Shown piece after piece: positions 6,202 through 54,829 of a DNA stretch of 64,000 nucleotides. The position numbers and the translations under genes were made by a program. Each line of letters begins with the position of its first letter. The first letter of the stretch is position 1. The notes under the pieces are model-generated. The model did not search any database, was not told where the DNA came from, and worked only from the letters and a program-made list of their open reading frames with translations. This stretch comes from an uncultured Candidatus Actinomarina sp. (lineage in GTDB: Bacteria > Actinomycetota > Acidimicrobiia > Actinomarinales > Actinomarinaceae), in the NCBI GenBank assembly GCA_902595195.1, contig CACJPC010000001.1:86654-150653 (forward strand), written 5' to 3'.

Positions 6202-6929
6202 TAGATGTTAGTTAAAGCCGTAACCTCTGCAACAATTTCTTCTTGTGTTGGTTGGTCTAAATCGCTAGCAATTCTTCCATCTTTCAACATTATTACTCTG
6301 TTGGCGTAAGAAGCAGCATAGGGATCATGAGTAACCATTATTATTGTTTGGTTAAGCTCTTCAACAACAGACTTCATAAAACTTAAAAGCTCTTTACTTG
6401 ACTTAGAGTCTAAATTTCCTGAAGGTTCGTCTGCAAATATTACTTCTGGTTTTGTTGCCATAGCCCTAGCTGCCGCTACTCGTTGCTGTTGTCCCCCTGA
6501 AAGCTCGTTAGGTCGATGTGATAATCTATCTCCAATATCTACAGTTTCAACAACTTGCTTTACCCAATCCATATCTGGCTTTCGTCCAGCAATTGATGCA
6601 GGTAGTGTAATGTTTTCTTCCGCGGTTAGAGTTGGAATTAAGTTAAAAGCCTGAAATACAAATCCAAAACTATCTCTCCTGATTTTTGTTAGTTGCTTAT
6701 CGTTTAGAGTTGAAATATCTTCTTCTTTTAAAAATATTTGTCCTGATGTGGGCCTGTCTAATCCAGCTAAACAGTGAAGAAGTGTTGATTTACCCGAGCC
6801 AGATGGACCCATGATTGCTGTGAATTCGTTTTCTTTAAATTCAACATTAATGTTGTCAAGTGCTGTGACACTTGTTTCTTTCTCTCCATAAATTTTTGTT
6901 AAATTTACTGAATGAATTATTTTATTCAT
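6201..6929 (-). CDS. ABC transporter ATP-binding protein (MacB/LolD-like)
   Basis: Walker A GPSGSGKST, signature LSGGQQQRV and Walker B IFADEPSGNLD are present. The track ORF extends to 7019, but the ATG at 6929 (MNKIIHSVNLTKIYG) gives the normal N-terminus. Confidence 0.9.
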   Translation of the reverse strand: MNKIIHSVNLTKIYGEKETSVTALDNINVEFKENEFTAIMGPSGSGKSTLLHCLAGLDRPTSGQIFLKEEDISTLNDKQLTKIRRDSFGFVFQAFNLIPTLTAEENITLPASIAGRKPDMDWVKQVVETVDIGDRLSHRPNELSGGQQQRVAAARAMATKPEVIFADEPSGNLDSKSSKELLSFMKSVVEELNQTIIMVTHDPYAASYANRVIMLKDGRIASDLDQPTQEEIVAEVTALTNI

Positions 6930-7005
6930 GAGTCCAATACTAGGTTGCAGATAGATATATGATATTTTCGTATTTTCTGTTAACAAAAAATTTACAAATA
7001 AAATT

Positions 7006-7033
7006 TTGAAAATTTTCAATTTACCTCTACATT
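7006..7033 (+). promoter_or_regulatory. candidate promoter (TTGAAA - 16 nt - TACATT) for a leaderless trp leader transcript
   Basis: TTGAAA at 7006-7011 and TACATT at 7028-7033. The leader ATG at 7041 starts 7 nt after the -10 hexamer, and there is no Shine-Dalgarno before the leader ORF. Confidence 0.35.
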
Positions 7034-39223: not shown

Positions 39224-39242
39224 TCTGCTACTATTCATCAAG

Positions 39243-39323
39243 AATAATGGAGCGAAGTTAGTGAAAGTCTAACACTGTCCCGCAACTGTAATTCGAAAGA
39301 TAAGTCAGGTCGCCTTCATTATT
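39243..39323 (+). promoter_or_regulatory. cobalamin riboswitch, compact form without a long peripheral extension
   Basis: P1 is AATAATG (39243-49) paired with CATTATT (39317-23). The core is GGAGCGAAG..GTGAAAGTC..ACTGTCCCGCAACTGTAA, with a B12-box-like AAGTCAGGTCGCC. A BtuF-like gene lies downstream. Confidence 0.7.
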
Positions 39324-39409
39324 GTTAAGACAACAGTCCTCGAGAGAAGGAATGAAGTTTCTAGAAATTCTTGAAGTTTCTTTATTTTCTCAAGGTAAGA
39401 AAGGAAAAT

Positions 39410-40330
39410 ATGAAAACGAAACTTATTATTCTTGCCTTGTTTGTATCAATGTGTTCAAATCAAGCGCAAGAAAAGAATGAAGTAAAAATTATTTCATTGT
39501 CTACAACCCACACTGAAATTATTCAATCATTAGGTGCAGAAAATACATTAATTGCTGTTGATGCTTTTTCTGAAGTTGACTTCCCAGTCCAAAGAATTGA
39601 CGCATACACAGTCACAGCTGAAGAACTAGCACCCCTTGATGCAGATATGGTAATAGTTGCTTTTGATTTCAATGGCATTATTGAAGGATTGGAAGCACAA
39701 GAGATTAACCATATCCTTTTACCTCCTGCTAGAAATCTTGAAGATGTGTATTCTCAGATTCAAATTATTGGAGAATTAGTAGATAAAAAAACTGTTGCAG
39801 AAACACAAATAAGAGATATGAAGCTTGCAATTAATAGAATCATAAGCAATTCAAATTATGAAAATATTACCGTATATCACGAAATTGGTTATTCCTATGG
39901 AATTTATAGTGTAAATGCAAACTCATTAATTGGAGAAATTTACAACTCACTTGGAATTATAAATATTGCTAACTCCGAGGAGGATCCTTTCGGAAGCGGA
40001 TACCCCGCATTAACTGAAGAAATGGTAATAGAAGCAAACCCCGACTTTATTGTTGTAGGACACTCTGACTATTTAAATAAAGACCTTTCAATTAGAGATG
40101 GTTGGGAAAACATAAATGCGGTTCAGAGTTCCAATGTATATTTTTTGGATGATACATTAGCCAGCAACTGGGGAACAACAACGCTAGAGCTTGTTGAAAC
40201 TTTATCAGCTACTTTTGAAGAAAGTGCTGAAACCAACCCATATTCAGACTATTTACTATTAGTATCATTATTGTTTTTAGTAATTATGCTATTTGTACTC
40301 ACACGAGACAGTACAAGGGCAAAAGTATAA
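39410..40330 (+). CDS. BtuF/FhuD-type (cluster A, Peripla_BP_2) substrate-binding lipoprotein, probably cobalamin-binding
   Basis: ATG 39410 follows AAGGAAA; the track start 39371 is a TTG inside the leader. Lipobox VSMC. KIISLSTTHTEIIQSLGAENTLIAVD is the BtuF-like N-lobe motif. A C-terminal hydrophobic helix LLLVSLLFLVIMLFVL is followed by basic residues. Confidence 0.7.
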   Translation: MKTKLIILALFVSMCSNQAQEKNEVKIISLSTTHTEIIQSLGAENTLIAVDAFSEVDFPVQRIDAYTVTAEELAPLDADMVIVAFDFNGIIEGLEAQEINHILLPPARNLEDVYSQIQIIGELVDKKTVAETQIRDMKLAINRIISNSNYENITVYHEIGYSYGIYSVNANSLIGEIYNSLGIINIANSEEDPFGSGYPALTEEMVIEANPDFIVVGHSDYLNKDLSIRDGWENINAVQSSNVYFLDDTLASNWGTTTLELVETLSATFEESAETNPYSDYLLLVSLLFLVIMLFVLTRDSTRAKV

Positions 40331-42455: not shown

Positions 42456-42890
42456 ATGTCAAAAATAAAACTATCAAAAGACCAATTCGAAGTTTTTTGG
42501 GAGGCAACAGTTCGATACTACGAACTAGATCCTCAAGGAGTAATGCACAACGCTAATCACGTCGCATTTTTTGATCAAGCAATTACTGCCTATTTTAAGC
42601 ATGTTAATTACGACTACTTGAGCGACATCGAAGAAACAAATAAAGATTTTCACACCGTACAGGTGTTAGTTCAGTACAACAAACCCCTTTACTTTGATCA
42701 AGATATAGAAATTGGCGTCAAAGTAAAAGAAATAGGGAACTCAAGCATGACATGGATTATGGGAATGTTTCTAAAAGAAACAGGGGATTTAGTTAGTTCT
42801 TGCGAGGCTGTTCATGTCTACACTGATCAAACAACAATGAAGCCAACACCCATTACTGATGAACTTAAAGCAAAACTGAAGTTTAATTAA
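42456..42890 (+). CDS. acyl-CoA thioesterase, hotdog fold (4HBT/YbgC-like)
   Basis: RYYELDPQGVMHNANHVAFFDQA is a typical catalytic-Asp region. The start abuts the pfp stop. Confidence 0.7.
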   Translation: MSKIKLSKDQFEVFWEATVRYYELDPQGVMHNANHVAFFDQAITAYFKHVNYDYLSDIEETNKDFHTVQVLVQYNKPLYFDQDIEIGVKVKEIGNSSMTWIMGMFLKETGDLVSSCEAVHVYTDQTTMKPTPITDELKAKLKFN

Positions 42891-42918: not shown

Positions 42919-44010
42919 ATGAATCAAAGAAGATATGATATTGATGCCTTGCGATCCATAGCAATGTTTCTTCTTATTTTTTATCATCTCGGAATTTCGT
43001 TCACTTTGATAGCTCCACAAATCCTCTTTGTTCAGAACAAAAGAACGCCAGGGGGTATATGGCCGCTATTAAACACCATGAACAACTGGAGAATACCACT
43101 CGTTTTCTTAATTGCAGGAGTCGCTCTAAGGCTTTCATTTAGCAAAAGAACTAAGATGCAGATATTCAAAGAGAGAGCAAAGATCCTTATCTTACCTTGG
43201 TTGTTTGGAACTCTTATATTTTCAACCTCATCGGCTTTGATTGTTGGGAGATATTATAACTATTGGTGGCTAGACGAAATCAGTGAAGCTGTTTTCTTTG
43301 TTTTAGAATATGACGGGCTACATCTATGGTTTTTGATTAATATTTTTCTTTATTGCTTGGTCCTTATTCCAATTTTGAATTTTATCTCAAAAGAAAATTT
43401 TATTGCTTCATTACTCAACAAACCTGGAGGCATATTTTTATTTGCAATTCCCATAATTGCTGAGGGGCACTTATTGAATGTATCAAGGTTTAAAACTGAA
43501 ACATATGGAGATTATTACAACTCATACGCGCTTACAGACCACGGTTTTCTACTTGGCTTCCTATGGTTTTTTATAGGAATAATTCTTACTTCTCAAGGGG
43601 ATGCATTTTGGGAATCGAATAAAAAAAATTGGCGGTTACATCTAGCATTAGGTGCACTATCATATTTTTACAGATTTTTTAACAATTTCCTTGAAGATTA
43701 CGCCTTAGACAACAGGCTTATAGCTTTCGAGTCTTTTAATTTTATTTTTGCACTTCTTGGCATTGCTGCAGTTTTCCTAAACAAAGATTCACCACAACTA
43801 ACATATTACAAAACAGCGGTTTATCCTGTATACATTGTTCACCTGCCGGTACAAATGGCAGTCATGTATTTTTTTGCTGGATCAAACATTCATCCAATAA
43901 TAAAATTTCCAATTGCTTTATTTTTAATTTGTTTCTTATCTCTAACTATTTACCATGCTGTAAAAAATATCAAACTATTAAGACCCTTGTTTGGTCTAAG
44001 GAATAAATAA
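42919..44010 (+). CDS. membrane acyltransferase family 3
   Basis: DIDALRSIAMFLLIFYHLG is the acyltransferase_3 N-terminal motif. About 10 TM helices. Confidence 0.7.
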   Translation: MNQRRYDIDALRSIAMFLLIFYHLGISFTLIAPQILFVQNKRTPGGIWPLLNTMNNWRIPLVFLIAGVALRLSFSKRTKMQIFKERAKILILPWLFGTLIFSTSSALIVGRYYNYWWLDEISEAVFFVLEYDGLHLWFLINIFLYCLVLIPILNFISKENFIASLLNKPGGIFLFAIPIIAEGHLLNVSRFKTETYGDYYNSYALTDHGFLLGFLWFFIGIILTSQGDAFWESNKKNWRLHLALGALSYFYRFFNNFLEDYALDNRLIAFESFNFIFALLGIAAVFLNKDSPQLTYYKTAVYPVYIVHLPVQMAVMYFFAGSNIHPIIKFPIALFLICFLSLTIYHAVKNIKLLRPLFGLRNK

Positions 44011-44012
44011 AT

Positions 44013-44504
44013 TTGAAAAAAGTAAATCTTTTAATTTTTATTCTTTTTCTAAGCTTATGCTCAACAACTAGTAATGATGGAGTAGCTTCTCTATCAAGTG
44101 ATACAACTACAACTTCGGTTATAGCGGAAGAAGATTATCCAATTGTTTTAACTCAGTGCTTAAACGAAGAAAAGGGCTACAACATAGCAACGCCGTTTGA
44201 TATTGAAGATTTAAAATCAACAATTAATCAGTTAAGTAACAGCAAAGAGGAACAGCTACAACTAAGAGAAGATGTTGATTACTGCATAAGCAAATATAAT
44301 CTCTGGTCAGATTCATCTTCATTGAATCCTGAAGAGCTTGCCAAAGTATATGATGAAAATCTTGAATTAGCTAAATGCTTAAGAGAAAAAGGGTTAAACG
44401 TTCCTGATCCAAGCCAACAAGAACCTAAAGTTGATTTAAGCGGGCTCAAGGAATCTAAAGACGACATAATGCCGTTGTTACAGGAATGTGGTTGGCAAAA
44501 ATAA
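44013..44504 (+). CDS. Cys-motif lipoprotein, paralog A (unknown family)
   Basis: TTG start and lipobox LSLC. It has two copies of the helix-C-x-[RN]-E-x-G...DP...C unit: LTQCLNEEKGY...DYC and LAKCLREKGLNVPDP...QEC. Confidence 0.75.
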   Translation: MKKVNLLIFILFLSLCSTTSNDGVASLSSDTTTTSVIAEEDYPIVLTQCLNEEKGYNIATPFDIEDLKSTINQLSNSKEEQLQLREDVDYCISKYNLWSDSSSLNPEELAKVYDENLELAKCLREKGLNVPDPSQQEPKVDLSGLKESKDDIMPLLQECGWQK

Positions 44505-44508
44505 GTTT

Positions 44509-45777
44509 TTAAAAACTAATAATAAACTTGGCTCCACCAAGCTCGGATTTATCTACGGAAATAGTCCACCCATATTTTAAAGTTATATTTTTAACAATAC
44601 TTAAACCAATGCCTTTACCGCTTTTATTTCTTGTTCTTGACTCATCTTCTTGCCAAAAGGGGGTAAATATTAAATCGTAGTTTTTTGGTTTAATACCGCC
44701 ACCATCATCTTCAACAATCACTGAAGGAATGCCATGAACCAAGTCAGTACTAATTACAGTTTTGTTGGATTTAAATTTTTCTGCATTTCCAATTAAATTA
44801 TTAAGCATTAATTTAACAACCTTACTGTTTGAAAAAACTTTTATTTCTTTCTTGTCTTGAAATACAATATCTGTACCGACCACTACTGTCTTAATTAACT
44901 CATTGACAAGGACTTCTTCAGAGCCTTCGGTGTTGCTGCCTGAAGTCTCTAAATCCAATAATGCTTCAAGTGTTGATTGGATTTCATTAATATCTTCTTG
45001 AATATTCTTAATCATCTCTTCATTTACACCGTTTAAGACACTCAACTTTTCAATTTGAAGTTTTAAACTTGTTAGCGGTGTTTTTAACTCATGAGATGTG
45101 TTTGATATAAACTGTTTCTGACTAATTGAGCTGATATTAACTTTTTCAAGAAGGGAGTTAAATGTTGATATTAAATTTCCAATTTCATCGTTACTAGCAA
45201 CCTCGTCGAGTTTCTCGAGCTTATTTAAAGGATCTAATTTTTCTATTTTCTTTATAGATTTATCTACTGGCTTTAATGCTATTTGTATAGAAATTAAAAT
45301 TCCAACAATAACTAACAATGAAGCCAAAATGTAAATTACAATAAAAATTCTCTCTATACCATTAATTATCTCGCTTGGTGTTGATTCGCTAAACCCAACA
45401 ACAATATCTACTTTTTTATCGTTACTCTCAGTTTTTATAAAGTTTAGATCAGTTAAGTTTTCGTTAAATTTGTTACTTTGGGGGTCATAATCATCAATGA
45501 GGTTTGGTGGAAAAAAACTATATTCAGATATTAGTTTTCCATTTTGCTTATCATATACCAACACAAAATATGGAATGAAGCGTTGACTTTCTAACGGTTC
45601 GAGGTTTTGATAATCTTCTTTTAACTCTTCAACTAATTTATCACTTCCTTCTTCTATAACCTGTTTAAACCTAAGCTCAGCTATATCTACTAATACTCCT
45701 GGAGCAATAAAAAGACCGACACCAAGGAAAAGGAGAGTAATTGATATAATTTTGGTTCTTATTCCTATATTCTTCAA
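44509..45777 (-). CDS. sensor histidine kinase (2 TM, HAMP, HisKA, HATPase_c)
   Basis: H-box SHELKTPLT and a G-box GKGIGLSIV. It is directly adjacent to the response regulator gene. Confidence 0.85.
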   Translation of the reverse strand: MKNIGIRTKIISITLLFLGVGLFIAPGVLVDIAELRFKQVIEEGSDKLVEELKEDYQNLEPLESQRFIPYFVLVYDKQNGKLISEYSFFPPNLIDDYDPQSNKFNENLTDLNFIKTESNDKKVDIVVGFSESTPSEIINGIERIFIVIYILASLLVIVGILISIQIALKPVDKSIKKIEKLDPLNKLEKLDEVASNDEIGNLISTFNSLLEKVNISSISQKQFISNTSHELKTPLTSLKLQIEKLSVLNGVNEEMIKNIQEDINEIQSTLEALLDLETSGSNTEGSEEVLVNELIKTVVVGTDIVFQDKKEIKVFSNSKVVKLMLNNLIGNAEKFKSNKTVISTDLVHGIPSVIVEDDGGGIKPKNYDLIFTPFWQEDESRTRNKSGKGIGLSIVKNITLKYGWTISVDKSELGGAKFIISF

Positions 45778-46452
45778 TCAATTCCACCTATACCCAAAAC
45801 CACGTACAGTGTTGATGCATACATCTAAATTAAATGGCTTTAGCTTTTTTCTGAGATAGCCAATATAAACCTCAACTTTATTAACGTCCTCTTCGGTTGG
45901 CTGTAAAATATCCCATATTTCTTCTAGTAGCTCTTTTTTAGTAAGAACATTGCCAGAGTTTTCTAATAAGTAACTTAGTAAATCAAATTCTTGTCTTGTT
46001 AACTCAATTTCTAATTTGTTGTGAGTAGCTTTTCTAGCAGCTAGGTCAATTTTTAAATCCTGAAATTCTAAGGTGTTTGTAGGAGCTATATCTTTTTTTA
46101 AAAGCTTTCTAACTCTTGCGAGCAACTCAATCATTGAAAAAGGTTTTCTTAAATAATCATTTGCACCAGTATCCAATCCCTCTTCGACATCATATTCACC
46201 ACTTTTTGCAGTCAACATTAAAATAGGTGACATCACTCCATGCTCTCTTACTTTTGCACACACTTTAAAGCCATTCATTTTTGGAATCATTATGTCTAGG
46301 ATTATTAAATCAGGTTGATTTTCCAAGATTTTAAAGTATCCCTCTTCTCCATCAAAAGCTTGGTCAACAACATAACCTTCATCAAGTAAAGAATCTTTGA
46401 CTAAGTCAGAAATTTTTATATCGTCCTCAATTAGAAGTACTTTGTTTACCAT
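45778..46452 (-). CDS. OmpR/PhoB-family response regulator
   Basis: Receiver domain (LLIEDD, DLIILDIMIPKMNG) plus a winged-helix C-terminus (VRGFGYRW). Confidence 0.9.
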   Translation of the reverse strand: MVNKVLLIEDDIKISDLVKDSLLDEGYVVDQAFDGEEGYFKILENQPDLIILDIMIPKMNGFKVCAKVREHGVMSPILMLTAKSGEYDVEEGLDTGANDYLRKPFSMIELLARVRKLLKKDIAPTNTLEFQDLKIDLAARKATHNKLEIELTRQEFDLLSYLLENSGNVLTKKELLEEIWDILQPTEEDVNKVEVYIGYLRKKLKPFNLDVCINTVRGFGYRWN

Positions 46453-46455
46453 AAG

Positions 46456-48096
46456 CTAGTTCTTGGCCTCGCGACTAACGCGCATCGGATTATCTAGTGC
46501 GTTTATGACAGGCTCTAGATCAGCTGGCCCCGGAGCTGTATATCTAACACCTTCAAATGGTTCTGGGCCAGGACCACCAGGATTGTAAAAGGCATTGTAA
46601 CCACCCTCTAGTGATGGGATTTCTACATAGGTAATGTTTCGTGCTGCTGCTTCATCGCCAACAAGAATTATATCAATGTAGTTATCCCTATCTTCAGCAT
46701 AACAATCATCATAAAAGATTCCTTCATCAGGGTTTTCTTTTTGCCCCAAATCCGAAAGCCCAACAATTCTGAGTGTTCCGCCTGCTACTAGATACTCCTG
46801 CCCCACCTTTTCCAAGAGAACTAATTCACCGTTAGACCCATTGGCGTGAATTCGGAAAAAATCCTCAAACATTGTGGGGGTCAAACCAGTAATACCATCG
46901 GGTGAGAAGCCTCCTGTTGTCAGCACGCGTATGCGAAAGTCACCCTCGTCATACAGTGATAGTTCATCGTTTGGCAAAACCCCAGATCTTGTTCCAAACC
47001 CCAAACCTCCTTCACCTAGAGCCTCGTTACCGACATGATTTAGTTTAGCTCCGACTAATTTTGGGCCCGAATCATAAGGACTTGTATCAGTTTCCCAGCT
47101 CAAGCCAACCGCATTAAACTCTTGGCCGTTTGGACCAATAAGAAGTAGCGGTGTTTCGTCTTCAACAATATCAAGCCTCACAGGGAAGATCGCATCTTCC
47201 TCGCTGCTGAGACCTCGATTGCCGAAATCACCAAACACAACAACCGTATTGCGTTCGTTCAATTCCCAATTTGGCAGCATTCCAGCGCTATTTGGAAAAA
47301 CGATATCGCCTGTGTTCAATGTGAATTGAAAATCGGTTAGATCAACAGTTTCTGTGGCTACAGGCCAACTAAATACAATAGGCAATCCGTCATCATCTTC
47401 AGAAGAACCCTTGTAGAACAAACCAACCCCGGCTGTACTTACAGTGCTGGTATATGCACCAGCTGGAGGATCTTCACCATTTGTACATGTTACTGAGCCA
47501 TACCAACTTCCTTCGGCTTCTCTGACAGTTTCTTCATTTACTTGGGGCCAACCAATAATTCCCTCAAAACCCATACCAGCAGATAAAATAACCGGTTCAT
47601 CACTCCAATAATCCGCTTCTTTTAAAGCGCCGTCAAAAAGCTGATCTTGCATATTCAACGAGTTCATAAGTCCTACGGCTAATACAACTAGCGCTCCAAA
47701 AACTGAAACTACTACAGCAAACCATCGTTTATGAAAGTACTTTTGTTCGTTAGATTCACTAATTTCAAAATCTTTTATTTTTAAGATTTGAGCCCAGCGA
47801 AGAAGTAAGTACAGACTTAGACCAATGAAAATGAGCATAGGAATTGCGAAATCGTGCTCACTTACATGAACTGTGTTAAGAGCAACGGTTGAAATAAATG
47901 CAACTAGTAACAACGTAAAAGAGAGTTTTTTGGGAGCACCTAGCAATATCGCAACTGCAACAAGAATAGCAATAACGTTACCAGTTATTCGCAACGGCTC
48001 TGCCATGTCAATTGCAATATGAAGTAACGCATCGAACGTGTTCCATCCGACTAAAACTGATGGAATACGACCACTTTTTATGACTTTATTTACCAC
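46456..48096 (-). CDS. membrane-anchored protein with large extracytoplasmic domain, unknown family; first gene of the TCS operon
   Basis: GTG start, about 5 N-terminal TM helices and then a roughly 390-aa Gly/Pro/Asp-rich domain. It ends 3 nt before the RR start. GC and codon usage are atypical. Confidence 0.75.
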   Translation of the reverse strand: MVNKVIKSGRIPSVLVGWNTFDALLHIAIDMAEPLRITGNVIAILVAVAILLGAPKKLSFTLLLVAFISTVALNTVHVSEHDFAIPMLIFIGLSLYLLLRWAQILKIKDFEISESNEQKYFHKRWFAVVVSVFGALVVLAVGLMNSLNMQDQLFDGALKEADYWSDEPVILSAGMGFEGIIGWPQVNEETVREAEGSWYGSVTCTNGEDPPAGAYTSTVSTAGVGLFYKGSSEDDDGLPIVFSWPVATETVDLTDFQFTLNTGDIVFPNSAGMLPNWELNERNTVVVFGDFGNRGLSSEEDAIFPVRLDIVEDETPLLLIGPNGQEFNAVGLSWETDTSPYDSGPKLVGAKLNHVGNEALGEGGLGFGTRSGVLPNDELSLYDEGDFRIRVLTTGGFSPDGITGLTPTMFEDFFRIHANGSNGELVLLEKVGQEYLVAGGTLRIVGLSDLGQKENPDEGIFYDDCYAEDRDNYIDIILVGDEAAARNITYVEIPSLEGGYNAFYNPGGPGPEPFEGVRYTAPGPADLEPVINALDNPMRVSREAKN

Positions 48097-48148
48097 AATT
48101 TAATGATGACAACATATATTTATTTAATCAAGCTTTATGAAGTTATCA

Positions 48149-48166
48149 TCACAGGATTCTCACAGG
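48149..48166 (+). promoter_or_regulatory. direct repeat TCACAGG-attc-TCACAGG (11-bp period), candidate OmpR-family binding site
   Basis: Read directly in the divergent region between the TCS operon and the 48191 operon. It ends 24 nt before ATG 48191, and TAAGAAT (48171-77) is a possible -10. Confidence 0.4.
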
Positions 48167-48190
48167 TTTTTAAGAATACACTCGAATGAA

Positions 48191-49156
48191 ATGAAAGTTT
48201 TTATGTTTACAAAAGAAAATACATTAAAAAGTGCATTATTTTTTTTAGCACTAGTAGTTACTGTAACTGTAATCACTCTAACTATTGGATTCGGAGGTAA
48301 TAAATCTTTAGATAAAGGAAGCAGATGGATTTCACTGGGGATGGATGAAATCAAAAGCATTGAACAATTAAACGAAGATCAAGCTCTAAAAATTAATAGT
48401 CATTTAAAGGAACTTAATGATCAAGAAGAACTACGAACAAACAAGGATTTTCAAAATACTTTCATTGAAGAAATAAGAACCGAAAATTATCCTGAATCTG
48501 CAATTTTATCAGTTGAAAAAACTCATATAAGAGTGAGTTCGCCTCTTAATTATCATGATGGTTATTGGGTTACAAAAGTGAAACTACCAAATATTTTTTT
48601 CAAAGGAACAGTTATTAACGATATGCACATTGACCCCTATACGAAACGAGTCACAGTCTATGCAAAATTACAAGTGTTGGGTAGAACAGTTTCGCCAGCA
48701 CAAGTTGGGCCTGGTGAATATGTAACAGATGACGATGGTAATAAAACAGCTCATCATCCAAATTCAGTTTACCTTAATGGTAGTGGACAAGAACTTTCTG
48801 AATCAGATGGTACAGGGGAATGGTGGGTAAAACATTCTTGGGTTCTTGATGGTGAAGGTTATATGAATTGGGAATTGAAACCTGAAGAGGACTATGGTGA
48901 AGGAACCTGGGTTGATGGTATTCTTCTAGATGATGGTATAACAATGAAAATTGGCACACTCAGTGATACAGAAAACCTATTGGGATTCAACACGCGTAAA
49001 CCTATTTTTAAAGATAACAAGTTAACATATGAAGTTATTAGGTGGGAATATGAAAATAATGAATCAGAACCAAATGAGGTTTTTACATTGGAGTGGAACT
49101 ATAAAACTAAAAAAAGTGCTTTTGATGGACTTAGAAGAAAGCCTTTAGGAGGATAA
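48191..49156 (+). CDS. N-terminally anchored extracytoplasmic protein, unknown family
   Basis: The track ORF starts at 48137. Starting at ATG 48191 (MKVFMFTKENTLKSALFFLALVV...) leaves a 94-nt divergent promoter region. One TM helix. No recognisable domain. Confidence 0.7.
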   Translation: MKVFMFTKENTLKSALFFLALVVTVTVITLTIGFGGNKSLDKGSRWISLGMDEIKSIEQLNEDQALKINSHLKELNDQEELRTNKDFQNTFIEEIRTENYPESAILSVEKTHIRVSSPLNYHDGYWVTKVKLPNIFFKGTVINDMHIDPYTKRVTVYAKLQVLGRTVSPAQVGPGEYVTDDDGNKTAHHPNSVYLNGSGQELSESDGTGEWWVKHSWVLDGEGYMNWELKPEEDYGEGTWVDGILLDDGITMKIGTLSDTENLLGFNTRKPIFKDNKLTYEVIRWEYENNESEPNEVFTLEWNYKTKKSAFDGLRRKPLGG

Positions 49157-49161
49157 ACTTA

Positions 49162-49602
49162 ATGAAAAAATTAATACCTGAAACAATCGAAAATAAAATT
49201 CCAAGTAACAAATTTGTCTATTATTTCACATGGCTATTAGTTGCATTTAATTTTTTTAGAAGTTTAGAGCATATATTTAACGATGATGGAGGAGCACAAT
49301 CTATTGCTGGTATTCCACTCGACTTTTATATTCCTGAAGCCTCAAATAATATAATTTCAATATTTGCTCAGTGGGGCTTTTCACAGCTAGTTTTAGCTTG
49401 CATATTATTACTTGTTGTTTTAAAAATGAGGGAATTAATACCTCTCATATTGCTCATTATTGCTTTAGAAAACATTTTAAGAGGAGCAGTAGCGTTATAT
49501 AAGCCTTTAATTTTGTTAGATGCTCCTCCAGGTGCAGTTTCTCCAATTATTGGTTTAGTAACTTTAGTTGTTTTTTTTATTTCAATAAGAGAAAACAAGT
49601 AA
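49162..49602 (+). CDS. small four-helix membrane protein, unknown family
   Basis: ORF track. A strong AGGAGG lies upstream, 5 nt after the previous stop. Confidence 0.7.
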   Translation: MKKLIPETIENKIPSNKFVYYFTWLLVAFNFFRSLEHIFNDDGGAQSIAGIPLDFYIPEASNNIISIFAQWGFSQLVLACILLLVVLKMRELIPLILLIIALENILRGAVALYKPLILLDAPPGAVSPIIGLVTLVVFFISIRENK

Positions 49603-49606
49603 AACT

Positions 49607-50197
49607 ATGAAAAAATATTTAAAAACTCCCTTACTACTTTTATTTATTTTTTTATTGGCGTGCTCTTCATCAGATGAATCAGAAGGAGTTGTTTCTGCAA
49701 ATGATTTATCAAGTGATACAACAGTTACAACGATTGTGGAGGAAGTTGCTGAAGAGGTCGTTTCAGTTGAAGATGCACAGCTTCTACTAGCTAGGTGCTT
49801 AAGAGAAAATGGATATGATATTACAGATCCTAAAAACGATGAGAGTTTACAAAGTGTCATTGGCCCAATTTGGTTAGCTGCTGATCAAAAAGGCAGGCAA
49901 GAACTCCAAGAGTCCATTCAGACATGTGCTGAAGAGAACAACATACCCCTTGGTGGTTCAGCAGAATTTGAGAATCCAGAAGCTGTTGCTGACTTATTAG
50001 ACACTCAGTTAGAGTTTGCCCAGTGCTTACGAGAAAACGGAATAGAGGTAGTAGATCCAAGTGCTGAAACCCCACTTCAACCTTTACTTATTGAGCTTGT
50101 TCAGTCTGGACAATATCTACAGACTCAAATTCAAGAAGCTGCAAATATATGTTTTGACGAGCTTGGAATTGACCCACCACAACAGGGCGGTGGTTAA
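49607..50197 (+). CDS. Cys-motif lipoprotein, paralog B
   Basis: Lipobox LLAC. The two units are LARCLRENGYDITDP...QTC and FAQCLRENGIEVVDP...NIC. Confidence 0.8.
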   Translation: MKKYLKTPLLLLFIFLLACSSSDESEGVVSANDLSSDTTVTTIVEEVAEEVVSVEDAQLLLARCLRENGYDITDPKNDESLQSVIGPIWLAADQKGRQELQESIQTCAEENNIPLGGSAEFENPEAVADLLDTQLEFAQCLRENGIEVVDPSAETPLQPLLIELVQSGQYLQTQIQEAANICFDELGIDPPQQGGG

Positions 50198-50222
50198 AGC
50201 TACATATAATTTATAATTTTAT

Positions 50223-50822
50223 ATGTACAAAAAAATCTCAGTAACACTAGTTTTATTTACTGCTTGCTCACTATTTCAACAAGAAGAACAAGCTGTTGTT
50301 TCTGTAGCAGATACTGATAAAGGAAAAGCAGCAATCGCTTCTGGCGTACAACTAACAGATGAACGAGAAGAGATTTCAGATGAGGATGCACCTTTAGTAC
50401 TTGTTCAGTGTGTTAATGAATCTGGTTATAGATTTAAAGAACCAAAAAACTTTTTAGATCTTTACACCACAATTGCATCGTATTTTGAAACAATAACCGA
50501 ACAAGAGGCCGAGGAACTGTGGGACATAATCGAGGAATGTGCTTTGGAATATAATTTATGGGGGGTAGCAGATGAAAATCAATTCGAAGATCCGGCACAA
50601 GTATCAAAAGAAATTGACAGATCACTGTTTATGGCGAAGTGTTTTAGAGAAAGTGGATATCCTAAAGTCCCAGACCCAGATTATTTCAACCGAGAAGTTA
50701 GGTTAGATGCTTATATTGATGAAGATTGGGAGCTTAGAGAAGACGACCCACTAGTCCAGACATGGCAAGCATGTGAAGATAAATTACCAGAAGAGTTAAA
50801 AGACGATGAGTGGGATGCATAA
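50223..50822 (+). CDS. Cys-motif lipoprotein, paralog C
   Basis: Lipobox FTAC. The two units are LVQCVNESGYRFKEP...EEC and MAKCFRESGYPKVPDP...QAC. Confidence 0.8.
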   Translation: MYKKISVTLVLFTACSLFQQEEQAVVSVADTDKGKAAIASGVQLTDEREEISDEDAPLVLVQCVNESGYRFKEPKNFLDLYTTIASYFETITEQEAEELWDIIEECALEYNLWGVADENQFEDPAQVSKEIDRSLFMAKCFRESGYPKVPDPDYFNREVRLDAYIDEDWELREDDPLVQTWQACEDKLPEELKDDEWDA

Positions 50823-50884
50823 AAAACTTAAGAAATTAATTCTCAGAAAACATACAGGTTTAATAAACTACTCTAATTGGAACA

Positions 50885-52450
50885 ATGATGAAAAATATAT
50901 TTAAATTAAAAAACTTATTAATTTTAGTTGCTGTTGCAGCACTAGCTTATGGTGGTTACTATTTTGGAACACAAAATGCAGATACATCTTCTAGCAGTAA
51001 AACACTGGAATTGACCACTGTTGCTATACAAAAAGGTGACTTAGCAAAAAAAGAAGAGTACAACGGAACATTAAGGCAGACAGACAAAAAAGTTCTTAAT
51101 TCGCCAACCAATGGAGTTGTTACTTTTCTACCTGAAGAAGGGACAATAATTAATTTTGGAGAGGTACTTTTCGTTATTGACAATAAACCAGTAATACTGC
51201 TTGAAGGAAGCACTCCCTTTTACAGAACTCTTGATTTGAATTCTGATCCTGGTGTTGACATAAAACAAGTTGAAGAAGCTTTAGTTTATTTAGGCTATGC
51301 GGAAAATTCTTTTGTGCCAGATGAAATTTTTGACACAGAAACATCACAAATGCTTAATGAGTTATATATAGATTATGGAATTGAAACTAAAACAGAAATT
51401 ACTCCTACCGAGCAAGTTTTAATAAATCAAAAAGAAGATGAAATAGAAAATTTTGAAGACATAATTTCAGATGGAGGAACAACTCTCAAAGAAGTTGACA
51501 ATAAGAAAAAATTATTAGATGATGCAATAGAAAATGCAACAAAAGAAAATGCTGCTTGGCAGGCTGCAGATGCAGAGATTGAAAGAATTCGTAATTTAAT
51601 AGACGAGCTCCAATATGAATCTATGTCTGAAGAAACTCGAGCTGGAAAGAAGGCAGATTATGAAGAAGATATTAAAGCACAAGAACGTATAAAAAACAGG
51701 GAAGCAGGAAAAGAATCCGGAATTGATGCTACCGAAGCCCTAGCAATTGAAAATGCTCAGAAAGCTTACGATGAAGCGCTTGAGTCTTACAATGAAGGTG
51801 TTAACAGAGAGGCTGAATTAGAAAAAGCAAGAGAAGAATTAGTTGAATTAAAATTAAGTGCTGTTTCAGAAACGTTTAGCCCAACTAATGCTTTTGCTTC
51901 AAAAACTCCAGTTATTGTTGGATCATACATTAATGACGTAGGGTCTGCTGTAGCTCTAAACTCACCTTTGTATAATATTTCTTCAACTGGAATAGAAGTA
52001 GTTTTTCAAGTAGATGCCACAGACCAAGAAACAGTATCTCTTGGAGACAGCGTTGAGATAGAACTTCCTACAAACGAAAGAGTTCCAACAGTAATTACAT
52101 TTATAGATCAAGTTGTAACACAAACGCAAGCAGGAGAATTTATAGAAGTGACATTAGAAGTTCTTAATCCAGAAGAAATTGAAGCTTACGACCAAGCTCC
52201 AGTAAAGGTATTCGTCACAACAGAAATTTCTGAAAACGTTTTATACGTTCCAGTAAATGCACTTCTTGCCTTAGCAGAAGGTGGCTACGCCTTAGAAGTG
52301 TATGATGGAGAATCCGATGGGGGAACTTTCGAAGGAGAGTCTGGGGTTGACACCAGCTACGTCGCTGTTGAAATAGGAGTTTTCACTGACGGTTTTGTTG
52401 AAGTAAAAGGTAATATCTCAGAAGGTCAAACAGTAGTCGTTCCAAGATGA
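50885..52450 (+). CDS. HlyD/membrane-fusion-type adaptor with peptidoglycan-binding segment
   Basis: An N-terminal TM helix is followed by a PG_binding_1-like stretch (VKQVEEALVYLGYAENSFVPDEIFDTETSQMLNELY). A long coiled coil and a C-terminal beta-barrel region follow. There is an ATGA overlap with the ABC ATPase gene. Confidence 0.75.
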   Translation: MMKNIFKLKNLLILVAVAALAYGGYYFGTQNADTSSSSKTLELTTVAIQKGDLAKKEEYNGTLRQTDKKVLNSPTNGVVTFLPEEGTIINFGEVLFVIDNKPVILLEGSTPFYRTLDLNSDPGVDIKQVEEALVYLGYAENSFVPDEIFDTETSQMLNELYIDYGIETKTEITPTEQVLINQKEDEIENFEDIISDGGTTLKEVDNKKKLLDDAIENATKENAAWQAADAEIERIRNLIDELQYESMSEETRAGKKADYEEDIKAQERIKNREAGKESGIDATEALAIENAQKAYDEALESYNEGVNREAELEKAREELVELKLSAVSETFSPTNAFASKTPVIVGSYINDVGSAVALNSPLYNISSTGIEVVFQVDATDQETVSLGDSVEIELPTNERVPTVITFIDQVVTQTQAGEFIEVTLEVLNPEEIEAYDQAPVKVFVTTEISENVLYVPVNALLALAEGGYALEVYDGESDGGTFEGESGVDTSYVAVEIGVFTDGFVEVKGNISEGQTVVVPR

Positions 52451-53130
52451 AAACCAGTACGAAAACTGTAATATCTATAAACAATATTTCCAAAGTTTAC
52501 GAAGGCCCACCACCTGTAAGAGCTTTAGACGGTGTATCTTTAGAAATTAAAGAAGGTGATTTTGTTTCAATTGTTGGACAATCAGGAAGTGGAAAATCAA
52601 CTTTCTTAAATATGATTGGTTTACTAGATAGCATAACTGATGGCTCAATAGAGATTGAAGGTAGTGATGTATCAAAACTTTCAGACAATGAGCTTTCAAA
52701 ATTCAGAGGTGAGAAAATTGGGTTTATTTTTCAAAGTTTTTTTCTTTTACCTGGTTTAACTGCACAGGAAAATGTTGCAGAAGGACTTTTATACCAAGGG
52801 ATTTCTAGATCAAAAAGATTAGAAAAAGCAAAAGAGGTACTGGACCAAGTGGGTTTAGGAGACAGATTAACTCATCTTCCAAAAGAATTATCTGGGGGAC
52901 AGCAACAAAGAGTTGCAATTGCTCGTGCATTAGTCCAAGACCCTGCATTTGTATTAGCGGATGAACCAACAGGTAATCTAGATAAAGAATCTGGATTAAA
53001 TATTCTCAATATCCTAAAAGACCTTAATAATCAAGGAAAAACAGTAATAATGATTACCCACAACCAAGAACATGCAAATATGTTTAAAAAAGTAATTGAG
53101 CTAGTTGATGGAAAAATAGTAAATCAATGA
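52447..53130 (+). CDS. ABC transporter ATP-binding protein (MacB/FtsE-like)
   Basis: Walker [10 protein letters not shown], signature LSGGQQQRV and Walker [12 protein letters not shown]. Confidence 0.9.
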
Positions 53131-54311
53131 AAAAAAACAGGCTTAAGATTAAAGATTTATTTTTTGTTGCGCTTTATGGAGTCAGAGCAAGAAAAGGGAG
53201 AGCAACACTCACCTCAATTGGGATAGGTATTGGTATTGCAGCAATAGTAGCTGTATCTGGAATTTCAGCATCGGGAAGGGCAGATCTTCTATCAACTCTG
53301 GAATCCCTTGGAACAAATCTAGTAAAAGCATCACCACAAGCCGGTTTTTTTGGAACTCAGGAAGAACTTCCCAAGGGCGTTTTGGGTATGGTTGAAAGAA
53401 TTGGGCCTGTTCAAGAGGTTACAGCTACTACACAGACGGATCTTTTAGTTAGAAGAAGCAATTTTATTTCTGAATTTGAAGGCGGAGGTATATCAACAAT
53501 AATTACTAGTGCTGAACTTTTAGACGTTATTGGTGGTGACTTAGCTGATGGAAGGTTTATTCAAGATGGATTGTCCGATATTCCAGTAACTGTTTTGGGA
53601 AGTGTGACAGCTCAAAGGTTGGGCATTAATAATTTATCTAAACCAACAAAAATACTTATTGAGAATGAGTGGTTTGGTGTGGTGGGCATTTTGGAAGAAC
53701 TAAAAATTCACCCTGACCTAGACAGGTCTGTGTTTATTGGATACGGTGTTGCAAAAACTCTTTTTGATATTAACGAAGAACCTACAACTATATACCTGAG
53801 AGCTAATCCAACTTTTATTGAGGATGTGGTTGAAGTACTTGCTCCATCAATGAATCCTGAAAATCCAGACCAAGTTGAAGTGACTCGTCCATCAGATGCA
53901 CTTGAAGCACAACAAGCAGCTGAAGAAGCTTTCACCAATTTATTGCTGGGACTAGGATCTGTGGCTTTACTTGTTGGAGGTGTCGCGATAGCAAACGTTA
54001 TGGTTATGTCTGTCCTAGAGAGAAGAATGGAAATTGGTGTTAGAAGATCTATCGGTGCAACTAGAAGAGAAATTAGATACCAGTTTTTACTGGAAAGTAT
54101 TGTTTTGTCAGGAATAGGAGGTTTAGTTGGAGTACTTCTCGGAACAGCTATAACCCTGGGTTATACTAATTACACAAATATTGTATTCTCAATACCTGTA
54201 TGGCAAATATTTGGAGCAGTACTCTTAGCATTATTAATCGGAGCTATTTCTGGTGTATATCCAGCTATAAAAGCATCAAAAATTCAACCAGCAGAGGCAG
54301 TTCGAAAGTAA
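53127..54311 (+). CDS. ABC transporter permease, FtsX/MacB type (4 TM with extracytoplasmic domain)
   Basis: The layout is TM1, a roughly 230-aa extracytoplasmic domain, then three TM helices. It ends with the canonical IQPAEAVRK. Confidence 0.85.
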   Translation: MKKNRLKIKDLFFVALYGVRARKGRATLTSIGIGIGIAAIVAVSGISASGRADLLSTLESLGTNLVKASPQAGFFGTQEELPKGVLGMVERIGPVQEVTATTQTDLLVRRSNFISEFEGGGISTIITSAELLDVIGGDLADGRFIQDGLSDIPVTVLGSVTAQRLGINNLSKPTKILIENEWFGVVGILEELKIHPDLDRSVFIGYGVAKTLFDINEEPTTIYLRANPTFIEDVVEVLAPSMNPENPDQVEVTRPSDALEAQQAAEEAFTNLLLGLGSVALLVGGVAIANVMVMSVLERRMEIGVRRSIGATRREIRYQFLLESIVLSGIGGLVGVLLGTAITLGYTNYTNIVFSIPVWQIFGAVLLALLIGAISGVYPAIKASKIQPAEAVRK

Positions 54312-54829
54312 AAATCCTTGCCTTTGTTGCGGTGTTTGCTGCATGCACCATTGGTGGAGAAGAGTCTCAGGGAGTAGTAACCATTGAATCTACTACTGCC
54401 ACAACAGTTGTTGATGAGGAAACAACTTTTGAAGAGGGTGTCCTCGAGTTTGCTCAATGCATGCGAGAAGAAGGTATTAATTTTCCTGACCCAACATTTG
54501 ATATAGATGGAAATCCACAGTTCGATAATTTAGAAATTGAAAATGAAGAAGAGTTTGAGACTGCTTTTGAAAACTGTGAAGATATTTTGAGAAATGCTCT
54601 CCCAGAGCAATTTGATTTAGACCCAGAAGTTGAAGCGGCTTTAGTTGATGCTTCTCTAGAATTTTCGCAATGCATGAGAGACCAAGGGATTGATTTTCCT
54701 GACCCTAAACCTGGAGAGTTTGGGTTCTTTGCTTTCAGAGATGCTGATATAGACTTTAGTTCAGAAGCAGTACAAGAGGCTTTTGAAATCTGTCAGCCAG
54801 AAAATCCGTTAGAAAACTTAGACGACTAA
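54200..54829 (+). CDS. Cys-motif lipoprotein, paralog D (start codon unresolved)
   Basis: The signal-peptide-like KVKILAFVAVFAAC starts right at the permease stop. The two units are FAQCMREEGINFPDP...ENC and FSQCMRDQGIDFPDP...EIC. The only canonical in-frame starts are ATG 54200 (112-nt overlap) and GTG 54332 (too late for the signal peptide). Confidence 0.65.
   Translation: MANIWSSTLSIINRSYFWCISSYKSIKNSTSRGSSKVKILAFVAVFAACTIGGEESQGVVTIESTTATTVVDEETTFEEGVLEFAQCMREEGINFPDPTFDIDGNPQFDNLEIENEEEFETAFENCEDILRNALPEQFDLDPEVEAALVDASLEFSQCMRDQGIDFPDPKPGEFGFFAFRDADIDFSSEAVQEAFEICQPENPLENLDD

Follow-up and report, generated by a model that had tools for sequence, protein, structure and literature searches.

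Four-cysteine lipoproteins linked to MacAB-like pump operons in Actinomarinales and other Actinomycetota are candidate accessory subunits

Four small paralogous lipoproteins, here termed A, B, C and D, are encoded around the genes for a Gram-positive MacAB-like (type VII ABC) pump in a 64,000-nucleotide stretch of the genome of an uncultured Candidatus Actinomarina sp. (contig CACJPC010000001.1; hereafter the window). We found that they belong to a large unnamed family of proteins with two repeated units and four cysteines, whose genes are consistently associated with operons for this type of pump; as a working name for these two-unit, four-cysteine lipoproteins of MacB operons we use 4C. We propose, with a probability of about one half, that A-D are membrane-tethered, extracytoplasmic accessory subunits of the pump. 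While the pump type is already known, its four-cysteine partner, the conserved tether motif of this partner and the expansion to three or four copies are not described in the literature that we searched, where we encountered neither the 4C family nor this type of operon.

All four proteins begin with an n-region that is basic and an h-region that is hydrophobic, leading to a lipobox ([LVI][ASTVI][GAS]C), from which lipidation is predicted (predicted signal peptides: A, MKKVNLLIFILFLSLC; B, ...LLLLFIFLLAC; C, MYKKISVTLVLFTAC; D, (V)KILAFVAVFAAC). The lipobox is followed by a stretch rich in Ser, Thr, Asp and Glu and then by exactly four further cysteines in every copy, with spacings of 39-43 residues between C1 and C2, 31-34 between C2 and C3, and 37-44 between C3 and C4. 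Pairwise identity among A-D is 27-38%, with 20 invariant columns, and a hidden Markov model (HMM) of the mature domain run against the six-frame translation of the window recovers A-D alone (E 1e-50 to 1e-59; next match E 4.5). An earlier note on this DNA had reported four paralogues with the lipoboxes LSLC, LLAC, FTAC and FAAC and exactly four cysteines past the lipid-modified one; both statements are confirmed, with a correction to the start of D, and all the motif strings that it quoted were found, including K/EYNLW behind the second Cys in A and C.

The eight half-domains of A-D fit a single pattern, D/E-x-x-L-x-[FL]-[AT]-x-C-[LMFV]-[RN]-[ED]-x-G-x-x-x-x-[DETK]-P ... C. In hhalign, the N-terminal and C-terminal halves match each other as profiles with a probability of 97% (E 4e-11). 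When HMMs of the halves were scored against the opposite halves, six of the eight exceeded all 2000 shuffles; the halves An and Cn lie at about the level of the best shuffle (one shuffle exceeds An, and Cn scores 16.1 bits against 14.1 for the best shuffle). The internal duplication of a unit of about 60 residues with two cysteines is thus real, and the earlier description of an exported and internally duplicated domain is supported, as is the tethering of the proteins to the membrane.

The AlphaFold2 model of domain B, computed from an alignment of 56 sequences (pLDDT 89.6, pTM 0.56), shows six helices that group by threes, the linker at residues 60-69 being of low confidence. In this model Cys10 lies in the helix spanning residues 2-13, Cys53 in 40-56, Cys86 in 70-89 and Cys128 in 118-132, so that each cysteine lies 3-4 residues ahead of where its helix, the first or third in the unit, ends. 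The model of a canonical high-GC member follows a like plan, with a short hairpin in place of the middle helix (core pLDDT 85-96). Given that the ends of the first and third helices are neighbors in an up-down-up bundle, the model is compatible with one disulfide per unit; the cysteines being invariant, even in number and near helix ends in the model, two intra-unit disulfides are plausible. The earlier proposal of two disulfides is therefore plausible too, and we infer their pairing from the modeled placement of the cysteines. Foldseek comparisons of the domain B model and the canonical high-GC model against the PDB returned nothing below E 3; as Foldseek aligns locally, a match of the fold at the level of the unit would already have shown up.

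Searching 1.84 billion cluster representatives (50% identity) with a profile recovered 3555 proteins at E <=1e-3, 635 of them at E <=1e-10, mostly from Actinomycetota, and a second homologue search added 120 relatives. All of these homologues carry labels such as 'hypothetical protein', and none has a precomputed Pfam domain. The four domain cysteines are invariant in 56 diverse members, along with Gly, Pro, Arg and Asp-Pro, and together with the lipobox Cys they are all invariant in a set of 119 members. Of the recognizable units with a leading Cys, 471 of 471 also possess the second one; a single homologue carries six cysteines in three units, and about 85-90% of 243 family members combine the lipobox with four cysteines. 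The resulting signature, [F/L]-A-x-C-[ML]-[RN]-[ED]-x-G-x-[DN]-x-[P]-[DE]-P ... C in two units with four cysteines, is matched by A-D.

The earlier note recognized no named family, and the Pfam, NCBIfam and PDB searches agree with it, in that the large family recovered by the profile search matched no characterized domain. Scans of A-D against Pfam-A and NCBIfam returned no family above cutoff, a profile search of the PDB gave no sequence match below E 0.2, and scans of the 56 and 119 homologues one by one yielded sub-threshold matches only. These comprise CX9C, CHCH, COX17 and PBP_GOBP from Pfam in a few of the 56 members, and cytochrome c551 and various lipoprotein families from NCBIfam, far under their cutoffs; in one such case (P0298) the alignment, at residues 27-94, spans the signal peptide, the tether and the first unit. 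The PBP_GOBP identity was rejected, being sub-threshold in just 4 of the 56 members, and neither a sequence nor a fold match was found to insect PBP/GOBP, DUF732, Excalibur, RcsF or other small exported cysteine domains. The CHCH, CX9C and COX17 proteins are likewise helical units pinned by disulfides, but they are eukaryotic and mitochondrial, and 4C lacks the twin Cx9C; its cysteines are 37-44 residues apart, only 4-8 of the 56 members match, at E 1e-4 or weaker, and no window protein does. A calcium loop like that of EF-hands (DxDxDG) was also considered: the D-x-D-G segments seen in D and in high-GC members are absent from A, B and C, and hence cannot be a family-defining feature. Most members are strongly acidic (median net charge -20.5, isoelectric point about 4.05), and a Streptomyces copy has a charge of +6. 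The binding of cations or cationic peptides as a general property was set aside on finding this basic member, and since acidity is not universal our interpretation is not built on it. No enzyme-like conserved site was seen among the conserved residues of the family.

In the window, the pump genes have B and C on their upstream side, C being directly next to the adaptor gene, and D on their downstream side, while A is 5 kb upstream beyond a variable insert. The genes from 48137 to 54829 form a tight plus-strand string with 4-nt overlaps between adaptor and ATPase, ATPase and permease, and permease and D. The permease and ATPase were identified as those of a MacB-type pump by Pfam matches above cutoff, and the adaptor by homology and a sub-cutoff RND_mfp match. 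The Pfam scan of this adaptor (521 amino acids) was without a match, its NCBIfam match to RND_mfp (E 6.6e-9) is under the family cutoff, and that to the CzcB/NccB family is weak (E 8.8e-6); both its ends align at 33-35% identity to the PG_binding_1/HlyD_3 proteins of high-GC relatives, including their peptidoglycan-binding segment.

In these relatives the ancestral layout is a single 4C gene in first position, followed by genes for a peptidoglycan-binding adaptor, an ABC ATPase and a MacB/FtsX permease, usually with a divergent two-component system upstream. Among the window copies it is D that most resembles the canonical high-GC members. On seven high-GC contigs seeded with lipoprotein members, an ABC_tran gene follows 4C in all seven, a PG_binding_1 gene stands directly after it in six, often with a stop/start overlap (L063 has an unannotated 143-residue gene at this place), and a MacB_PCD/FtsX gene follows wherever the contig and the gene calls allow. 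Divergent regulator and kinase genes are present in five of the seven; the canonical operons L063, L068 and L112 have no two-component system within several kb. The same layout occurs on a Streptomyces plasmid, where the annotation has 'hypothetical protein' for 4C and 'peptidoglycan-binding protein' for the gene after it, in Allosalinactinospora, in an Anaerolineaceae metagenome-assembled genome (MAG) and on the contig of P0224, a member anchored by a transmembrane (TM) helix. In Streptomyces sp. NBC_00376, which has the canonical operon, the 4C protein is WP_266737619.1, and the adaptor, ATPase and permease come after it. The linkage thereby spans Acidimicrobiia, Streptomyces, Streptosporangiales, Gaiellales and the Anaerolineaceae MAG.

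A metagenome scan seeded with the adaptor, using the best 80 of at least 522 confirmed adaptor matches, of which 9 were without upstream sequence, found exactly one 4C open reading frame (ORF) directly upstream and on the same strand in 71 of the 71 loci with room for it (median gap 9 nt); given this sampling, the linkage applies to this adaptor subfamily. Where the 4C gene overlaps a neighbor, it is the adaptor or the permease gene, never the kinase gene. The earlier note had raised the possibility that homologues elsewhere also flank a pair of peptidoglycan-binding adaptor and MacB genes, and this proved to be so essentially without exception. A weak YknX_C match was seen in one adaptor (L152). 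In one predicted protein of 353 residues (P0236) an Arg/Pro/Gly-rich stretch joins the 4C domain to the start of a peptidoglycan-binding adaptor, and another (P0255) has a similar Arg/Ala-rich tail after 4C without an adaptor part. Both look like frameshifted or run-through gene calls rather than true domain fusions, and P0236 in this way gives independent evidence that the 4C and adaptor genes adjoin.

Within Actinomarinales, about 55 loci share a fixed order: PFK, thioesterase, in some an acyltransferase, A, a variable insert, B, C, adaptor, ATPase, permease, D and a convergent lipoprotein gene. A-D are stable orthologous groups across the order, scoring 220-480 bits with the ortholog but 50-70 with a paralogue; the number of 4C copies is three, not four, in some clades. 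The fixed groups indicate that the expansion is older than the diversification of the order; the earlier suggestion of a specific local amplification cannot thus mean a recent one, and the ancestral state is one copy in first position. Orthologues share with the window copy a median identity of 77% for A, 72% for B, 87% for C and 87% for D, compared with 75% for the adaptor, 93% for the permease and 88% for the housekeeping PFK, such that C and D are conserved like PFK and A and B like the adaptor. This nearness to the values of neighboring genes implies that A-D are not fast-evolving surface or decoy proteins.

The earlier note had placed the amplification around a combined module of two-component system and ABC transporter. 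The kinase and regulator genes lie between A and B in only about 10 of 62 Actinomarinales loci, the window included, whereas about 50 of the 62 keep all their 4C copies (three or four) and the pump with neither gene at the locus, which singles out the pump as the tight partner. The order has been described as having genomes of about 1.1 Mb with 29-44 paralogues each and no identifiable two-component systems (PMC7771536). Published descriptions of Actinomarina genomes that we searched mention neither lipoproteins nor MacB. We observe that the window carries a complete OmpR-type two-component system (44509-46452, minus strand) in an Actinomarina genome and that, where Actinomarinales have such a system, it is always at the pump locus, as in the high-GC relatives. 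One further contig (L048, JBDMYC010000105.1), labeled as a Flavobacteriales MAG, has the order PFK, A, kinase, regulator, 146-residue gene and B, with 69% identity to window B, and has probably been mis-binned.

The tether between the lipidated Cys and the first unit is otherwise of low complexity, and in all four window proteins it contains a motif like V-A-S-L. Of 227 lipoprotein members of the family, 178 have a motif of the form [VI][AV][ST][LIV], mostly VASL, 8-12 residues past the lipidated Cys; in shuffled linkers the figure is 1.7%. In structures of LolCDE a short β-strand of the substrate, formed by linker residues ~12-16, docks in a cleft of LolE's periplasmic domain (PMC12846838), and the V-A-S-L motif, at residues ~10-14 from the lipid Cys, is at a similar distance. 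Given that LolE is a permease of the MacB family, a similar docking of the 4C tether motif is a reasonable lead. A minority of the members are anchored by a TM helix and not by a lipid: P0224 has neither the lipobox nor the VASL motif, yet lies in a canonical operon, and the TM-anchored P0161 (contig L153) is encoded on one strand with a regulator, a kinase, an ATPase and an 818-residue double-FtsX permease, in the order regulator, kinase, 4C, ATPase, permease, with no adaptor. As TM-anchored variants occur in the same operon, what stays constant is that 4C is held to the outer side of the membrane and accompanied by a type VII ABC permease.

In light of these observations, we propose that 4C would be exported by Sec, lipidated at the lipobox Cys, and suspended from the membrane by a flexible tether of 25-45 residues, bearing two small helical units, each with a probable disulfide between its first and last helix. 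The V-A-S-L-like strand and the two C-x-R..G-x-D-x-P-D-P loops would be the likely contact surfaces for the ectodomains of the permease and the adaptor. The most likely job of the protein would be to capture an extracytoplasmic substrate or present it to the pump, or else to gate the pump, and in Actinomarinales four specialized paralogues would then share one pump. Capture, presentation or gating is favored by the mode of action of type VII ABC transporters, which work by mechanotransmission on substrates outside the cytoplasm (PMC5985334), by the lack of an enzyme-like site, and by the presence of four paralogues on one pump, which suits specificity factors. Of the roles suggested by the earlier note, namely accessory, ligand-presenting or decoy component, the first is thus favored, ligand presentation stays conjectural, and a decoy role has no specific support, the acidity of the family not being universal.

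Several considerations weigh against this proposal. Whereas the anatomy of the proteins, the family and the constant operon linkage are established, the physical association of 4C with the pump, the disulfides and the capture or gating role are inferred; the strongly conserved residues (Cys, Arg, Gly, Asp-Pro and hydrophobic positions) are possibly purely structural, and no ligand site is visible among them; the small three-helix units offer scant room for a pocket; and the strong acidity that might have hinted at a ligand type does not extend to the Streptomyces copy. Moreover, the P0161 locus, in having no adaptor, suggests that the partner may be the permease or the kinase instead of the adaptor.

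The alternatives differ chiefly in what they make of the pump. If 4C were its cargo, the MacB-type permease would grip the acyl chains and the tether strand in the manner of LolCDE and expel 4C through the adaptor to the wall or surface. LolCDE and Aat are indeed machines of the MacB family that move lipidated proteins (PMC5985334; PMC7943197), the distance of the tether motif from the lipid Cys resembles that of the LolE-docking strand (PMC12846838), E. coli MacAB exports the small two-disulfide peptide STII, and 4C is the first gene of the operon. We nevertheless judge this to be unlikely: P0224, at the same operon position, and P0161 are TM-anchored without lipobox or V-A-S-L motif, and a TM helix does not readily suggest a Lol-type substrate; the hosts are monoderm and have no outer membrane to deliver to; the orthologues are conserved like housekeeping genes, unlike fast-evolving surface cargo; and the overlapping, apparently coupled genes suggest an expression matched to the pump, which befits a subunit better than an excess cargo. 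In its more specific form, in which the operon would be a dedicated lipoprotein-extrusion machine of monoderm Actinomycetota that ejects 4C into the wall zone through a Lol-like grip on the tether, we deem the idea rather improbable; if true, it would place a Lol/Aat-type pathway in bacteria thought not to need one, with Actinomarina (about 1100 genes) keeping four cargoes for one machine.

Alternatively, 4C might act on the adjacent histidine kinase as a modulator or co-sensor, much like the envelope lipoproteins RcsF, NlpE, CseA or LpqB, which serve signaling systems, with the pump as the regulated output. RcsF is likewise a lipoprotein with four cysteines and two disulfides, a divergent OmpR-type regulator and kinase lie beside most canonical operons, and the adaptor-less gene order of L153 puts 4C next to the kinase and the pump genes on one strand. 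This too appears doubtful in view of the roughly 50 of 62 Actinomarinales loci, in an order described without identifiable two-component systems (PMC7771536), and of the operons L063, L068 and L112, all of which retain 4C and the pump with no such system nearby, and of the gene overlaps, which involve the adaptor or permease and never the kinase. We consider it quite unlikely that 4C is a CusF-like chaperone delivering a metal or cation to the pump by way of its cysteines or nearby Met, His and acidic residues. The layout is similar to that of cusRS/cusCFBA, many high-GC members read C-M-R-E-H-G-x-D-M-P-D-P, 4-8 of the 56 members have weak sub-threshold matches to COX17, CX9C or CHCH, the adaptor weakly matches the CzcB/NccB family, and most members are very acidic; but there is no conserved His or Met column beyond the hydrophobic M/L beside the Cys (domain B has no His and no Met), the cysteine spacing is not Cx9C and the family matches are far under cutoffs, an invariant and even number of cysteines in exported actinobacterial proteins better suits disulfides, and the acidity is not universal. 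It is most improbable that 4C stands beside the pump genes by coincidence and serves the envelope independently of them: though the gene link is known from genomes alone, it holds in 71 of 71 adaptor-seeded loci and in distant lineages, often with overlapping stop and start codons.

The accessory role that we prefer has precedents in Gram-positive MacAB-like pumps, whose co-transcribed fourth components, YknW and AS-48E, have been called 'enigmatic' in role (PMC5985334). YknWXYZ of Bacillus and AS-48EFGH of Enterococcus likewise encode, in order, an accessory protein, an adaptor, an ABC ATPase and a MacB-type permease in a monoderm host, and YknX binds peptidoglycan, while the adaptors of the 4C operons carry a PG_binding_1 domain built into the protein. 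Unlike 4C, which is tethered by a lipid or a single TM helix and has two units with predicted disulfides, YknW and AS-48E are polytopic proteins with four TM helices, with no similarity in sequence or fold. LolCDE and Aat are also type VII ABC (MacB-fold) permeases acting on small lipidated proteins; the Lol system, however, has no adaptor, employs the chaperones LolA and LolB and recognizes the linker whatever its sequence, and Aat, in the CexE/dispersin system, needs an outer-membrane duct and the acyltransferase AatD, whereas 4C occurs in monoderm hosts and is in some cases TM-anchored. MacAB-TolC of E. coli similarly combines a MacB permease with a hexameric adaptor for substrates already outside the cytoplasm. 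Its substrate STII is small, Sec-exported and held by two disulfides but unrelated to 4C, and YbjP (DUF3828), a lipoprotein accessory that sits on assembled MacAB-TolC and binds TolC, is encoded outside the operon and is also unrelated to 4C, which has no TolC to bind here. RcsF, NlpE, CseA and LpqB are small lipoproteins tied to signaling, to which 4C shows no family match, and 4C persists where no two-component system is found.

The job of adaptor-containing MacAB-like pumps in bacteria without an outer membrane, and that of their extra components, has been called an open question (PMC5985334). Here a large family without a Pfam or NCBIfam entry contributes the first gene to each operon sampled of one widespread type of actinobacterial pump, and it offers experimental handles in its four invariant cysteines, two conserved loops and tether motif. 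A genome of about 1100 genes, ranking among the most streamlined known for free-living cells, spends seven or eight of them on the 4C-pump system; that a genome type with few paralogues keeps three or four anciently diverged 4C copies argues for a core envelope function and not an optional resistance trait.

The start of D deserves separate mention. At its signal peptide there is no ATG, GTG or TTG, and the first codon is GTA (54308-54310), which is not a start codon of translation table 11 and which overlaps the TAA stop of the permease gene (GTAA). This 4-nt overlap is constant in the window (54305-54316) and in 50 related loci (L001-L061), where the junction reads ATGA in 8 cases, ATAA in 10 and GTAA in 33, the window included; the aligned start position is accordingly ATG, ATA or GTA, with ATG in 8 of 51 orthologues. 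These observations suggest that D is translated by termination-reinitiation at near-cognate codons. Alternatives are a -1 frameshift at A_AAG_TAA, by which permease and D would be made as one fused protein, or initiation at an ATG in the frame of D at 54200, which lies 36 codons upstream inside the permease gene, takes up, when read in the permease frame, the third base of the Val358 codon and the two that open the Trp359 codon, and is missing in four of the loci with ATA.

Table 1. Coordinates of the 4C paralogues, pump genes and other features in the window
Feature	Coordinates	Strand	Remarks
Paralogue A, 163 aa	44013..44504	+	TTG start; lipobox LSLC (Cys16); tether; units Cys49/91, Cys122/159
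Tether motif of A, V-A-S-L	44082..44093	+	8 residues past lipidated Cys
Paralogue B, 196 aa	49607..50197	+	ATG start; lipobox LLAC (Cys19)
Tether motif equivalent of B, VVSA	49688-49699	+	
Paralogue B, unit 1	~49769-49948	+	Cys64/107
Paralogue B, unit 2	~49976-50176	+	Cys140/182
Paralogue C, 199 aa	50223..50822	+	ATG start; lipobox FTAC (Cys15); Cys63/106, Cys140/184
Tether motif equivalent of C, VVSV	50295-50306	+	
Membrane-fusion (HlyD/YknX-like) adaptor, 521 aa	50885..52450	+	N-terminal TM helix, degenerate PG_binding_1-like segment, ~170-aa coiled-coil insert
ABC ATPase	52447..53130	+	PF00005 (ABC_tran) E 1.3e-34; 4-nt overlap with neighbor on either side
MacB-type (type VII ABC) permease	53127..54311	+	MacB_PCD E 9e-16, FtsX E 2e-21
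Paralogue D, ~173 aa	54308..54829	+	lipobox FAAC; Cys51/90, Cys122/162
Tether motif equivalent of D, VVTI	54374-54385	+	
OmpR-family response regulator	45778..46452	-	Response_reg + Trans_reg_C
Sensor histidine kinase	44509..45777	-	HisKA + HATPase_c; two TM helices, ~110-aa extracytoplasmic loop
Variable insert, three membrane/exported proteins	46456..49602		546 aa (-), 339 aa (+), 146 aa (+)
Thioesterase	42456-42890		just upstream of acyltransferase gene
Acyl_transf_3 membrane acyltransferase	42919-44010		ends 2 nt ahead of the TTG of A
Small lipoprotein, 163 aa	55531-56022	-	weak DUF4864 match, E 0.0018
Second type VII ABC system	3586-7019	-	871-aa FtsX-type permease + ATPase
AdoCbl (B12) riboswitch	39227-39363	+	58.4 bits vs gathering score 50; directly upstream of ORF 39371-40330

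The genes around the pump are less uniform (Table 1). The three insert proteins are without a family match in Pfam and NCBIfam scans: the largest has several N-terminal TM helices and a large ectodomain, the 339-residue protein is exported, and the 146-residue one resembles a protein with four TM helices. The genes for the latter two start the plus-strand string that leads into B. All three are variably present across Actinomarinales, the 146-residue gene being often found between A and B even without a two-component system, and their membership in the pump system is uncertain. About half of the related loci have the acyltransferase gene. The small lipoprotein gene beyond D is convergent with it in nearly all Actinomarinales loci; it is fast-evolving (median identity 58%) and was not found beside the high-GC operons. 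Scans for promoters and terminators gave no guidance: promoter-like sites were rarer than in shuffled sequence, and terminator-like sites were as common as chance predicts. Elsewhere in the window, the second type VII ABC system has no adjacent 4C gene, and the B12 riboswitch scores above its gathering threshold.

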